Below, piece after piece: positions 2,931 through 7,679 of a stretch of DNA of 64,000 nt; the first letter of the stretch is position 1; each line of letters starts with the position of its first letter. This DNA is from Escherichia phage VEc20. Both the position numbers and the translations under genes were made by a program. The stretch lies in sequence record MN022785.1, one strand, 5' to 3'. The notes beneath the pieces are model-generated. The model saw only the letters and a program-made list of their open reading frames with translations, made no database searches and was not told where the DNA came from.

Positions 2931-3062
2931 CAGTTTTGTGAAAAAATTTTTAAAAAGTTTTAGGGAATTCTAGGGTCAGGAGGGACAATTAAAAGGTAGG
3001 ATAATATATTATAAAGGGTATAAACTAAATGATGCCTAGAGAGACAAGGAAAGGCCTAGATA

Positions 3063-3091
3063 CCAAAAAGCCCCAACCTTTTGGTCGGGGC
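3063..3091 (-). terminator. rho-independent terminator after the internal-protein-like gene
   Basis: minus-strand hairpin AGCCCCGACC-AAAA-GGTTGGGGCT followed by TTTTTGG. Confidence 0.65.
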
Positions 3092-3099
3092 TAAGAATG

Positions 3100-3561
3100 T
3101 TATTTGATTTGTTTAGCAGACCAAATGCGGTCTTTGATGATTTTTTGGAGGTCTTCAACATACTCTAGGTCATGAGCATGTGGATTATCTTTGAAACTAT
3201 GAGCTCGCGCAAGTTTCTGGCCTTCGGTCTTAATTATCAAAAGTTCTTTAAGAATTGCTTCATACCTAGAGATAATTCCTTTAGCAATATTTTTTTCTTG
3301 TGCTGCTTTAGGGTCAGCCTTAGGAGCAGGTTTACCAGAAGGTTTTTCGAAAGCCGCGCCAGTAGCAACCAGGCTTTTCCAGGCGGTGGTAACATAGTTA
3401 CCCACAAAGCCTTCAGCTCTCATATCGTCGTAGAACTTGTACCGAGATTCGTCAGAAGCATCTTTATAAGAATATTTACCAGCTTTAATAGCAGCAGTTG
3501 CTACAGCGCGAACATCTGAAGCGGATGCTTCGGTCATTAAAAATTGAGCATAAGTTTTCAT
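3100..3561 (-). CDS. internal-protein-like late protein with capsid-targeting-type N-terminus (MKTYAQFLMTE)
   Basis: 153 aa; AGGAAA RBS; own late promoter TATAAATA upstream and rho-independent terminator downstream; N-terminus resembles T4 IP leader MKTYQEFIAE. Confidence 0.65.
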   Translation of the reverse strand: MKTYAQFLMTEASASDVRAVATAAIKAGKYSYKDASDESRYKFYDDMRAEGFVGNYVTTAWKSLVATGAAFEKPSGKPAPKADPKAAQEKNIAKGIISRYEAILKELLIIKTEGQKLARAHSFKDNPHAHDLEYVEDLQKIIKDRIWSAKQIK

Positions 3562-3589: not shown

Positions 3590-3597
3590 TATTTATA
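3590..3597 (-). promoter_or_regulatory. T4 late promoter TATAAATA (gene 3100..3561)
   Basis: plus-strand tatttata; AGGAAA RBS and ATG 29 nt downstream on minus. Confidence 0.6.
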
Positions 3598-3598
3598 C

Positions 3599-3627
3599 TA
3601 AAAAGCCCCAACCTTTCGATCGGGGCT
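3599..3627 (-). terminator. rho-independent terminator ending the tRNA/stable-RNA transcription unit
   Basis: minus-strand hairpin GCCCC...GGGGC followed by TTTTT, then the late promoter. Confidence 0.6.
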
Positions 3628-3674
3628 AAGCCTTGCGGCAACCTTGTCGGGGTTCCACCTGCTAAGGCAAGTGT

Positions 3675-3840
3675 TTGTACGAAACGCCGGGATTCGAACC
3701 CGGTTATTAAGTAGTTGACGCTACTCAATATTTTTAAAAGGCCATATCTCGACCATATCCGAACGTTCCGTCAAAAACGCTACTCGGCTTACGGCAAAGA
3801 TATTTCCTCGAATCGATAATTCGGTGCGCCGTTTCTGCTG
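3675..3840 (-). ncRNA. tRNA-like stable RNA (T4 species 1/2-like); boundaries approximate
   Basis: minus-strand T-arm CCGGG-TTCGAAT-CCCGG followed by acceptor-like CGTTTCG; complementary GAAACG about 150 nt upstream; no ORF. Confidence 0.35.
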
Positions 3841-3934
3841 TGATAGTAAAGAGCCAGAACACAGTAAAACTGTGGGAGGAAACTATACTCCAGGGAACAT
3901 CAGTCCGACGACTTACCGGTAGCGACCCGGTTTC

Positions 3935-4285
3935 TTAATATTCTTTTAAAGAATCAATATATTCACGGCGTTTACGCCACAAATCAATTGCTTCATACGC
4001 GGATTCAGCATTTCGAATTAGCCGGCATTTATGTAAAGACTTATGATTTTGATATTGTGTAGATAACGGAATTGTATCTAAAAGGTCTTTACGATCAAAA
4101 TATTCGTAACCATCTAAACCAAATGAACGATTTTTGAGAAATTGCCAATGACCATATTCGTTTTCGACATAAACATAATCTGCATGCTGATAAAGCAAAT
4201 TAATTACACGTTCAGAAATAACAGTATCATTATGATTAAAATAGAATGTTAAATCATGAACTACTAAATAAACATTACCTTTCAT
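3935..4285 (-). CDS. hypothetical protein (116 aa) embedded between tRNA-Arg and the stable RNA
   Basis: ORF with GAGGAAAAT RBS directly before ATG; no recognisable motif. Confidence 0.6.
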   Translation of the reverse strand: MKGNVYLVVHDLTFYFNHNDTVISERVINLLYQHADYVYVENEYGHWQFLKNRSFGLDGYEYFDRKDLLDTIPLSTQYQNHKSLHKCRLIRNAESAYEAIDLWRKRREYIDSLKEY

Positions 4286-4303
4286 ATTTTCCTCACTTAT
4301 AAT

Positions 4304-4379
4304 TGGTCGAGGCAGTAGGGATCGAACCTACGACCTAGGACTTAGAAGGTCCTTGCTCTTCCTTCTGAGCTATGCCCCG
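4304..4379 (-). tRNA. tRNA-Arg (anticodon TCT)
   Basis: hand-folded cloverleaf: acceptor CGGGGCA/TGCCTCG, anticodon loop CTTCTAA, T-arm GTAGG-TTCGATC-CCTAC, CCA encoded. Confidence 0.85.
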
Positions 4380-4383
4380 TAAT

Positions 4384-4459
4384 TGGGGTGACCGATGGGA
4401 GTCGAACCCATGACTACGAGAATCACAATCTCGAGTTCTACCAACTGAACTACGGCCAC
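4384..4459 (-). tRNA. tRNA-His (anticodon GTG)
   Basis: acceptor GTGGCCG/CGGTCAC, anticodon stem CGAGA/TCTCG loop TTGTGAT, T-arm ATGGG-TTCGACT-CCCAT, CCA encoded; no encoded G-1. Confidence 0.7.
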
Positions 4460-4573
4460 ATTAATACCTACTCCAACAATCAAGATGTCTTCACACGAAA
4501 TTAAGAGAAGAGTGATCAGTTCAACCCCTATAATCGCGTCAAGTAGATATTAATGTGACAGTTGTCACAAATT

Positions 4574-4648
4574 TGGCGGACGTGATAGGATTCGAACCTA
4601 TAACCAATCGCTTAACAGGCGATCGCTCTGCCATTGAGCTACACATCC
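4574..4648 (-). tRNA. tRNA-Asn (anticodon GTT)
   Basis: acceptor GGATGTG/CACGTCC, anticodon stem ATCGC/GCGAT loop CTGTTAA, T-arm ATAGG-TTCGAAT-CCTAT, CCA encoded. Confidence 0.8.
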
Positions 4649-4652
4649 AAAT

Positions 4653-4739
4653 TGGTGGGGAGTGGTGGAGTCGAACCACCCGAGTCGCAATGACAATGAA
4701 TTTACAGTCCACACCGCTACATCTACGGGATAACTCCCC
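4653..4739 (-). tRNA. tRNA-Tyr (anticodon GTA), class II with long variable arm; D-arm fold uncertain
   Basis: acceptor GGGGAGT/ACTCCCC perfect, T-arm GGTGG-TTCGACT-CCACC, anticodon loop CTGTAAA with G-U-containing stem, 87 nt. Confidence 0.55.
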
Positions 4740-4748
4740 AAATTAATT

Positions 4749-4823
4749 TGGTGGCCCTGGGTGGAATTGAACCACCATCTGGCGATTATGAGTCGCTTGC
4801 TTGAACCTTCCAGCTACAGGGCC
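4749..4823 (-). tRNA. tRNA with anticodon CAT (Met-type; probably the T4-like lysidine-modified tRNA-Ile)
   Basis: acceptor GGCCCTG/CAGGGCC, anticodon loop CTCATAA, T-arm GGTGG-TTCAATT-CCACC, CCA encoded. Confidence 0.8.
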
Positions 4824-4824
4824 T

Positions 4825-4900
4825 TGGTGCTGATTGACGGAATCGAACCGCCGACCTTCTCATTACAAGTGAGTTGCTCTACCTACTGAGCTAAATCAGC
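4825..4900 (-). tRNA. tRNA-Thr (anticodon TGT)
   Basis: acceptor GCTGATT/AATCAGC, D-arm GCTC-AGTAGGTA-GAGC, anticodon loop CTTGTAA, T-arm GGCGG-TTCGATT-CCGTC. Confidence 0.85.
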
Positions 4901-4905
4901 AAAAC

Positions 4906-4995
4906 TGGCGGAGGCGATAGGATTTGAACCTATGAGTCGCCGGAGCGACTGCCGGTTTTCAAGACCGGTGCATTAAACCACTCTGCCACGCCTCC
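4906..4995 (-). tRNA. tRNA-Ser (anticodon TGA), class II
   Basis: acceptor GGAGGCG/CGCCTCC, anticodon stem CCGGT/ACCGG loop CTTGAAA, long variable arm, T-arm ATAGG-TTCAAAT-CCTAT. Confidence 0.85.
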
Positions 4996-4997
4996 AG

Positions 4998-5071
4998 TCT
5001 CCGTGGCAGGATTTGAACCTACGACATTCTGCTCCCAAAGCAGACGCTCTACCAAACTGAGCTACACGGAG
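4998..5071 (-). tRNA. tRNA-Pro (anticodon TGG); CCA not encoded
   Basis: acceptor CTCCGTG/CACGGAG, anticodon stem TCTGC/GCAGA loop TTTGGGA, T-arm GTAGG-TTCAAAT-CCTGC. Confidence 0.8.
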
Positions 5072-5081
5072 TAAATTAAAT

Positions 5082-5155
<74 letters not shown>

Positions 5156-5160
5156 AAATT

Positions 5161-5247
5161 TGGTGCGAGAAGTGGGACTCGAACCCACAAGGAAATCATT
5201 CCGCAGCATTTTAAGTGCTGTGCCTTTACCAATTTGACCATTCTCGC
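5161..5247 (-). tRNA. tRNA-Leu (anticodon TAA), class II
   Basis: acceptor GCGAGAA/TTCTCGC, anticodon stem CAGCA/TGCTG loop CTTAAAA, T-arm GTGGG-TTCGAGT-CCCAC, 87 nt. Confidence 0.85.
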
Positions 5248-5248
5248 G

Positions 5249-5321
5249 CTGGGAATAAAGGACTCGAACCTTTGCATCTAGCAGTCAAAGTGCTATGCCT
5301 TACCAACTTGGCTAATTCCCA
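5249..5321 (-). tRNA. tRNA-Gln (anticodon TTG); CCA not encoded
   Basis: acceptor TGGGAAT/ATTCCCA (U1-A72), anticodon stem TAGCA/TGCTA loop CTTTGAC, T-arm AAAGG-TTCGAGT-CCTTT. Confidence 0.8.
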
Positions 5322-5390
5322 ATTATTAACAAAGGCTCTCTAACAAGAACCCTTGATGATAGAGGGTATTAATCAGTGCGGTATGAGTTA

Positions 5391-5416
5391 ATAATAACAA
5401 ATAATTCTTAAAGCAT
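5391..5416 (-). promoter_or_regulatory. candidate T4 middle-type promoter (MotA box ATGCTTTA, 12-nt spacer, -10 TATTAT) upstream of the tRNA array
   Basis: minus-strand TATGCTTTAAGAATTATTTGTTATTAT about 65 nt upstream of tRNA-Gln 5' end. Confidence 0.35.
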
Positions 5417-5418
5417 AT

Positions 5419-5706
5419 TTACCATTTATGATAATACGTATTTACGATACATTCAAGACCCAAAGGATTCTTGAAAATATTATATTCAAGAGGACCTTTT
5501 TCCGTTTCAATAAAGAAATCAAAGTTAACTGTGTTAAATTTACGGTCTTCCTTCACTAATTTAACTTGAGAAGATGAACGGTCAATGTAAACCTTTTCAA
5601 CTTCAAAACAGGTTAAAATGCCATAATCATCAATCAAGGCTTTAGCTGCTTCTTGATCATATTTATATCCATTTTCAATGGATGATACTTTAGCATAAAG
5701 AATCAT
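5419..5706 (-). CDS. hypothetical protein (95 aa)
   Basis: ORF track; start overlaps stop of upstream ORF (coupled); no recognisable motif, no capsid-targeting leader. Confidence 0.55.
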   Translation of the reverse strand: MILYAKVSSIENGYKYDQEAAKALIDDYGILTCFEVEKVYIDRSSSQVKLVKEDRKFNTVNFDFFIETEKGPLEYNIFKNPLGLECIVNTYYHKW

Positions 5707-6350: not shown

Positions 6351-6584
6351 TTATTTTTTACGAAAAATTGATTTATTTTCTGCTGCCCATTTTTCAATAA
6401 CTGCAGCAGGACCAGTAACAACAATTTTATCACCGTAATCTTCTGCGGCGAGTTGACCGAAATTATCTAATGCATCACGAAGAACTCCATGAGGCATTTC
6501 ACCCATTTTATCTTTCTTGCCGGTGTAAATAAACTCAACTTTTACATCAGAAGATTCAGCGATAAACTCTTTGAAAGTTTTCAT
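6351..6584 (-). CDS. internal-protein-like small protein with capsid-targeting leader MKTFKEFIAE (77 aa)
   Basis: N-terminus matches T4 IP leader pattern with I-A-E cleavage-type site; ORF-track start 6596 is an alternative in-frame ATG. Confidence 0.6.
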   Translation of the reverse strand: MKTFKEFIAESSDVKVEFIYTGKKDKMGEMPHGVLRDALDNFGQLAAEDYGDKIVVTGPAAVIEKWAAENKSIFRKK

Positions 6585-6621
6585 TTTAGTTTCCATTCGA
6601 TTGTTTTGTTTTGATAGGGTA

Positions 6622-6994: not shown

Positions 6995-7679
<685 letters not shown>

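Follow-up and report, generated by a model that had tools for sequence, protein, structure and literature searches.

The window considered here, 64,000 nucleotides from Escherichia phage VEc20 (sequence record MN022785.1), is a T2-like Tequatrovirus segment containing gp3, gp1, 57A, 57B, the internal proteins, the T4-type ORFs trna.4, trna.3 and trna.2, and then an array of tRNAs. The array consists of 11 tRNAs on the minus strand, from 5321 to 4304, as identified by ARAGORN and in agreement with Rfam. The last of them is tRNA-Arg with anticodon UCU (4304-4379, minus strand; 66.1 bits against the Rfam tRNA family), which is 97-100% identical to its counterparts in T2L, G50, teqhal and Sholem. 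The encoded CCA end of this tRNA is followed by an 18-nt leader, AUUAUAAGUGAGGAAAAU (4286-4303, minus strand), and then by the ATG start codon of a 116-aa ORF (3935-4285, minus strand), the subject of this work. The ORF list and ARAGORN both agree with the preliminary description, in which this frame was placed downstream of tRNA-Arg and in the same orientation. On the opposite strand of the interval there is no other ORF of at least 40 aa.

The stable RNAs that come after the ORF were placed by aligning the window to the annotated records of T4 and T2L. The homologue of rnaD (species 2 stable RNA), whose 5' end reads UUAAGAAACCGGG, lies at approximately 3823-3938, and rnaC (species 1 stable RNA, with a tRNA-like 3' part) at approximately 3678-3816, both on the minus strand. 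A terminator scan found a single terminator, after rnaC: an intrinsic one with a hairpin and a U-run (3604-3627, minus strand), which closes the tRNA-ORF-rnaD-rnaC unit. A tRNA-like stable RNA had been described at about 3675-3840; there is indeed a stable RNA there, namely rnaC, while rnaD, with its overlap of the ORF stop codon, had been missed.

The ORF occupies the whole gap between tRNA-Arg(UCU) and rnaD, with a 5' untranslated region of 18 nt and no 3' untranslated region. In T4, rnaD starts with AUGAGAAACCGGG, and the equivalent position in the window is one base before the TAA of the ORF, so that the stop codon lies within rnaD (3935-3940 against 3938). The T2L record also annotates rnaD as overlapping the end of the CDS. 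This junction is nucleotide-exact in seven ORF-bearing phages (that of the window, T2L, G50, teqhal, SholemSchwarzbard, HX01 and RB69), and the C-terminal residues of the protein vary among them despite it. The 401 nt that comprise the 3' end of the ORF, rnaD, rnaC and the terminator fold with a z-score of -5.16, and a small hairpin is found at 3961-3984, in the 3' part of the ORF.

Several other features of the region deserve mention. rnaC is 98-99% identical between Tequatrovirus and Mosigvirus, whose neighbouring protein genes differ by 20-30%. Serratia phage LC53 (L005:275-415) and Escherichia phage EcS1 (L010:1518-1657) carry a sequence resembling it (85-88% identity) between tRNA-Phe and tRNA-Trp. 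rnaC has no match among Rfam families, and a literature search on T4 species 1 RNA returned nothing useful. Within the array, the 114-nt spacer between tRNA-Asn and tRNA-His (4460-4573, minus strand) folds at -32.7 kcal/mol (z = -4.36 against shuffled sequence) and matches no Rfam family and no tRNA. G50, teqhal and SholemSchwarzbard have the gap too; T2L and RB3 lack it, with Asn directly next to Arg. The spacer may encode a small structured RNA that has escaped annotation, or it may be what is left of a decayed tRNA. Beyond rnaC, a 36-nt direct repeat (3060-3095 and 3595-3630; 92% identical), with a strong terminator hairpin in each copy, brackets a 153-aa ORF (3100-3561; phrog_2280, of unknown function), and in T4 no gene is annotated between rnaC and e.8. 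The arrangement suggests a gene cassette that was inserted or exchanged between two stem-loop repeats, in the manner of the modular shuffling described for T4-type phages. On the other side of the array, an 81-aa ORF (6351-6596, minus strand) is assigned by PHROGs to an internal virion protein (phrog_8111); the weak match of its product to the IF3 C-terminal domain in Pfam (E = 0.0022; 18 bits, below the cut-off of 34.8) is probably noise.

The 116-aa protein has been described before. It is 94.8% identical over 116 aa to the 'trna.2 protein' of T2L (CAI54242.1, in the tRNA-cluster record AJ880101). The tRNA region of T2L was sequenced by Brok-Volchanskaya et al. [quoted passage not shown] The window protein also gives a full-length match to phrog_3355, of unknown function (E = 7.9e-53; residues 1-115 against positions 1-116 of a profile of 117), proteins 100% identical to it are annotated in many GenBank phages, and the members found in Mosigvirus are approximately 66-70% identical to it. 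The homologue in RB69 is RB69ORF150c, which was reached at 36% identity from a Serratia-type member of the family (P0016). With regard to position, the gene is found directly downstream of tRNA-Arg(UCU) and abuts rnaD. The ORF is thus the same gene as T2L trna.2, RB69ORF150c and PHROG 3355, known in T2L since 2008. Literature searches on RB69ORF150c and phrog_3355 found nothing, and a scan of IMG/VR contributed 7 further loci, mostly from known isolates. Two labels may cause confusion. The 'trna.2' of T4 (NP_049746) is a different protein with no relation to this one; its gene precedes the array, and its homologue in the window is at 5419-5706. In phage ZCEC14, the homologue of the window protein is labelled 'recombinational endonuclease subunit D13' (gp47); the window protein has no Pfam or NCBIfam hit and no calcineurin-like phosphoesterase domain, and the GenBank label is best regarded as a mis-annotation.

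Regarding the expression of the gene, the strong ribosome-binding site that had been attributed to it is well founded: a Shine-Dalgarno sequence, GAGGA, is located at 4290-4294, 4 nt from the AUG, in a leader that is AU-rich and unstructured. T2L, G50, teqhal and Sholem have exactly this leader, and RB69 and HX01 agree with it at 14 of the 18 nt, the Shine-Dalgarno sequence being conserved. Together with the first 50 nt of the ORF it folds at -5 kcal/mol (z = +0.96), that is, it is no more structured than shuffled sequence, and hence the ribosome-binding site is open and not sequestered. No signal of a promoter belonging to the ORF was detected in the two scans that were made, one for sigma-70-like sites and one for the T4 late consensus. 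From the start of the array to the ORF there are 9 sigma-70-like sites where 7.8 are expected, which is background, and the late-promoter consensus TATAAATA does not occur on the minus strand of 3598-5659. Since the orientation is shared, promoters are not in excess and the sole terminator comes after rnaC, co-transcription of the ORF with the tRNAs, already thought probable in the preliminary description, is the simplest reading of the sequence. It is in line with the published account of the T4 cluster, where a middle promoter upstream gives rise to a single transcript whose end lies beyond species 1 RNA (Brok-Volchanskaya et al., 2008; PMC2330249).

The question of whether the frame encodes a protein can be approached through its pattern of substitution. 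The ORF was found by tblastn in 425 phage records; 57 of these are at least 99% identical, 139 are in the range of 60-80% and 12 do not reach 60%. Values of dN/dS were obtained by the Nei-Gojobori method for non-saturated pairs only, within and between Tequatrovirus and Mosigvirus. They are 0.12-0.32 for pairs with a dS of 0.06-1.8, and 0.07-0.32 over all non-saturated pairs within the two genera. For the ORF of the window, dN/dS is 0.20 against T2L, 0.24-0.32 against G50 and teqhal, 0.21 against SholemSchwarzbard and 0.12 against HX01. Nucleotide identity goes down to 75-88% and amino-acid identity to 67-85% with the frame intact throughout, and in the same pairs of phages the flanking rnaC is 98-99% and tRNA-Arg 83-100% identical; rnaC maintains this 98-99% against T4, T2L, RB69 and HX01. 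Equal rates of synonymous and nonsynonymous change, which would have spoken against a protein-coding gene, are not what is seen; because dN/dS is well below 1, the reading frame is judged from its substitutions to be a genuine protein-coding gene under purifying selection. It could be argued that the frame arose by chance or is non-functional, and that the DNA is kept for a reason at the RNA level, as a spacer or a structured part of the tRNA/rnaD precursor, given that the ORF lies entirely within the stable-RNA precursor and has the hairpin at 3961-3984 in its 3' part. However, such an explanation is effectively refuted by dN/dS values of 0.12-0.32 with many synonymous changes, by a frame that remains unbroken while nucleotide identity falls to 75-88% next to an rnaC at 98-99%, by homology that is still detectable in the protein at 28% identity, and by the conservation of the Shine-Dalgarno sequence.

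The distribution of the gene in the tRNA regions of T-even phages, a comparison proposed in the preliminary description, is informative. Out of 769 phage records that have the same DNA neighbourhood, those 425 carry the ORF, and the phages that do not are of at least two types. In the T4 type, segB, a divergent tRNA-Arg and then rnaD follow each other, with this junction in approximately 101 records. In the type represented by RB3, GiZh and SHFML-26, a T2-type tRNA-Arg (flanks 92-98% identical) is joined to rnaD by three nucleotides. The difference between the window and this second type is a clean indel of approximately 366-369 nt: after the CCA, the window has AUUAUAAGUGAGGAAAAU, the ORF, a U and AAGAAACC, while the other phages have AAC and then AAGAAACC. 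The natural absence of the gene from T4, RB3, GiZh and SHFML-26 is clean, and therefore the gene is not needed for viability or for tRNA-Arg, rnaD or rnaC; it is dispensable in nature.

A polymorphism of this kind raises the question of whether the gene is a selfish mobile element or the remnant of one, for instance a free-standing gene similar to those of homing endonucleases, as segB is in the T4 tRNA cluster. The 366-369 nt fit exactly between the CCA of tRNA-Arg and the 5' end of rnaD, with flanks that are nearly identical whether the gene is there or not; homing endonucleases are found among the other ORFs of the tRNA region in related phages, and the region is a known target of SegB homing (Brok-Volchanskaya et al., 2008; PMC2330249). 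Nevertheless, in T4 x T2L crosses it is SegB homing that replaces the whole T2L segment, and trna.2 is retained by 0.4% of the progeny, which is inheritance in the opposite direction (PMC2330249). The wider distribution also points away from mobility. In each of the 7 named Tevenvirinae genera examined, among them Mosigvirus, Winklervirus, Mosugukvirus, Kagamiyamavirus and Karamvirus, and in the unclassified Klebsiella phage Roth79, homologues lie within the tRNA island and are encoded on the same strand as the tRNAs. In Mosigvirus RB69 and HX01 the array is cut down to tRNA-Met and tRNA-Arg, and tRNA-Arg, the 18-nt spacer, the ORF and rnaD are all kept. Serratia Winklervirus, Pectobacterium PM2 and Escherichia EcS1 have divergent homologues (28-40% identity), and by hhalign the family extends to Enterobacter AS6 (97.5% probability) and Klebsiella Roth79 (93.6%). 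To judge by these sequences, the gene does not look like a mobile one; what is seen looks like an ancient syntenic position at which losses or allelic exchanges have recurred. The earlier suggestion of mobile cargo has only the clean presence/absence polymorphism in its favour, the position in the tRNA region is constant across genera, and a selfish origin is considered very unlikely.

As for the endonuclease genes of the region, SholemSchwarzbard carries one between tRNA-Gly and tRNA-Ser (L009:132-665) together with the ORF, and SHFML-26 carries a segB-like gene (L023:1919-2584) beside a T2-type tRNA-Arg and has no ORF. Homing-endonuclease genes are therefore found at differing positions, which makes the tRNA region a mosaic of at least four haplotypes.

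The protein itself offers few clues. An alignment of 13 members, down to 28% identity, contains 16 invariant positions (M1, Y6, L31, N42, W47, F49, K51, R53, Y62, F63, L68, L69, L84, I90, W103 and R107), and T13, D36, H46, D67, I72, P73 and L74 are nearly invariant. The conserved positions belong mostly to an aromatic and hydrophobic core with a few polar residues, and no metal-binding, nuclease-like or catalytic-type motif is recognisable in the alignment. The family is soluble (GRAVY of approximately -0.7), rich in aromatic residues (12-19%) and near neutral (pI 5.8-8.6), and for these reasons it would be neither a classic basic RNA-binding protein nor an acidic DNA mimic. The stretch WRKRRE, for which Pfam gives a weak match to REV, was considered as a possible arginine-rich helix for RNA binding; this was discarded, given that only W103 and R107 are conserved and the pI of the family is near neutral. 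The AlphaFold2 model built from the 13-sequence alignment (pLDDT 72.7, pTM 0.68) has a beta-hairpin at 4-17, a helix at 25-34, a second hairpin at 37-52, a poorly defined stretch at 55-83 (residues 55-60 and 73-83 are below 50) and a confident long C-terminal helix at 93-114. The predicted domain is thus compact, of alpha/beta type and extended by a long helix at the C terminus; with a model of moderate quality, a fold relationship could have been missed.

Searches for relatives lead to a similar picture. The absence of a recognised motif and the dissimilarity to GIY-YIG enzymes, both reported from a first inspection, hold up in profile searches: the window protein matches no Pfam family at E <= 1, nothing significant in NCBIfam and no PADLOC model at E <= 10, and none of the 13 family members matches a nuclease family in Pfam at E <= 5. 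No GIY-YIG catalytic domain is detectable by profile, nor does the model have the GIY-YIG alpha/beta fold; a supposed degenerate version of the motif ('GNVY...FYFN') was rejected, the Gly of YIG and the helix Arg not being conserved and the fold giving no match. When the 13 members were compared with Pfam, DUF2654 appeared only below threshold (best E = 0.0029, 18 bits against a cut-off of 25, over approximately 25 residues) and was treated as noise; its identification with Frd.3 is wrong, since frd.3 of RB69 is PF05798. The sequence search of the PDB gave non-significant matches only, the best being a cGMP-kinase domain (E = 0.015). An exhaustive HMM search of 1.84 billion representative proteins yielded 8 clusters, 7 of which are full-length or truncated members of the same family, the other being a spurious repetitive protein of 650 aa (P0011), and a word-indexed profile search added a few more phage-type sequences. 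Foldseek matches in BFVD are to uncharacterised proteins only, mostly from phages, and those with a name at E <= 0.005 all come from T4-like phages. As far as sequence comparison reaches, the family is phage-restricted, without a detectable relative outside these T-even-type phages.

The overall view that we favour, with somewhat better than even confidence, is that of a conserved and dispensable accessory gene of T-even-type phages (Tevenvirinae), expressed from the tRNA precursor, whose product is a binder. The protein would act stoichiometrically, by binding a partner and not by catalysis, although the conserved H46, K51, R53, D67 and R107 could form an active or ligand site. Among specific roles, the most probable is an accessory one in host range or counter-defence, which the phage could do without on laboratory hosts; this is a conjecture that stays short of an even chance and is built on guilt by association together with the absence of motifs. 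The association is with 57B (6995-7453), reported to be the anti-CBASS nuclease Acb1 (Hobbs et al. 2022), with the internal-protein genes and with the tRNAs. PHROGs lists 57B only as RNA ligase, and both 57B and the internal-protein genes, which count as known counter-defence genes, are 2-3 kb upstream of the ORF. As to the tRNAs, those of phages have been proposed to serve as counter-measures to tRNA-cleaving defences (PMC10264068).

A second possibility, which we rank behind the host-range or counter-defence factor and consider rather unlikely, links the protein to the tRNA island itself: it would inhibit or act as a decoy for a host nuclease that targets tRNAs (an anticodon nuclease or a colicin-type defence), or it would help as a chaperone or in the processing of the phage tRNAs and stable RNAs. 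The location of the homologues within the tRNA region in every genus examined is consistent with this, as are the retention of tRNA-Arg, the 18-nt spacer and the ORF in RB69, which has only tRNA-Met and tRNA-Arg, and the invariant W47, F49, K51, R53, Y62, F63, W103 and R107, which suit binding to RNA or a protein interface; the published proposal on phage tRNAs and tRNA-targeting defences would fit here as well. A selfish nuclease and a non-coding frame come last, each of them very improbable.

The proposed sequence of events starts at promoters upstream of the array, from which the gene would be transcribed as one part of a long tRNA-rnaD-rnaC precursor. A host endonuclease would cut the 3' trailer of tRNA-Arg in the AU-rich leader and so produce an mRNA with a short leader, and the ORF would be translated before the cut that makes the 5' end of rnaD, or in competition with it. 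With the stop codon inside the 5' end of rnaD, maturation of rnaD at the position homologous to that of T4 would leave the ORF mRNA without a stop; the cut would in this way remove the stop codon and limit expression. A limit of the same kind, at the 5' site of tRNA-Arg, has been proposed for segB (Brok-Volchanskaya et al., 2008; PMC2330249). A bolder version, to which we assign little probability, holds that the exact nesting is functional, translation of the ORF and maturation of rnaD being coupled or mutually exclusive, and also that the protein is a dedicated partner of the tRNA island, such as an inhibitor of a host tRNA-targeting nuclease. With such coupling, either the processing cut would generate non-stop mRNA or terminating ribosomes would gate the maturation of rnaD, and if nesting and partnership were both true, a phage 'tRNA counter-defence module' would here have its first component that is a protein.

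The value of the gene as a candidate lies in its family, an orphan one that is well conserved, restricted to phages and always located in the tRNA island, and for which no fold relative was found. Its natural presence or absence in nearly identical phages provides isogenic-like pairs for the study of host-range or anti-defence effects, and the overlap of the stop codon with rnaD is a tidy system for following mRNA translation alongside stable-RNA processing.

The comparison with known systems begins with T2L trna.2, which has the same length of 116 aa, with a few substitutions, the same site between tRNA-Arg(UCU) and rnaD and a stop codon that overlaps rnaD. The arrays differ, in that T2L lacks tRNA-His and the 114-nt spacer and has an extra ORF, trna.1, between tRNA-Ser and tRNA-Met. 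RB69ORF150c and the other Mosigvirus proteins are full-length (66-70% identity) and encoded 18 nt after tRNA-Arg(UCU), abutting rnaD, but their array consists only of tRNA-Met and tRNA-Arg and their C-terminal residues are different. The distant relatives of Serratia phages CHI14, X20 and LC53, Pectobacterium PM2, Escherichia EcS1, Enterobacter AS6 and Klebsiella Roth79 (112-124 aa) are also encoded in the tRNA island and on the tRNA strand, and they share with the window protein the core motif hADY..(N/D)..GHW.F.K.R...(E/Q)YF..(K/D)DLL; they differ in an identity of 28-40% and in not adjoining tRNA-Arg or rnaD/rnaC, other small ORFs flanking them. Finally, segB of T4 resembles the ORF in its arrangement: it too codes for a protein from within this tRNA operon, it lacks a promoter of its own, and its 3' end falls on the site where the following stable RNA is processed at the 5' side. 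Its product, in contrast, is a protein of 221 aa with a GIY-YIG nuclease domain, and there is no similarity in sequence or fold between the two. The ribosome-binding site of segB is sequestered in a hairpin (PMC2330249), whereas that of the ORF is open, and segB lies upstream of tRNA-Arg, while the ORF lies downstream of it.
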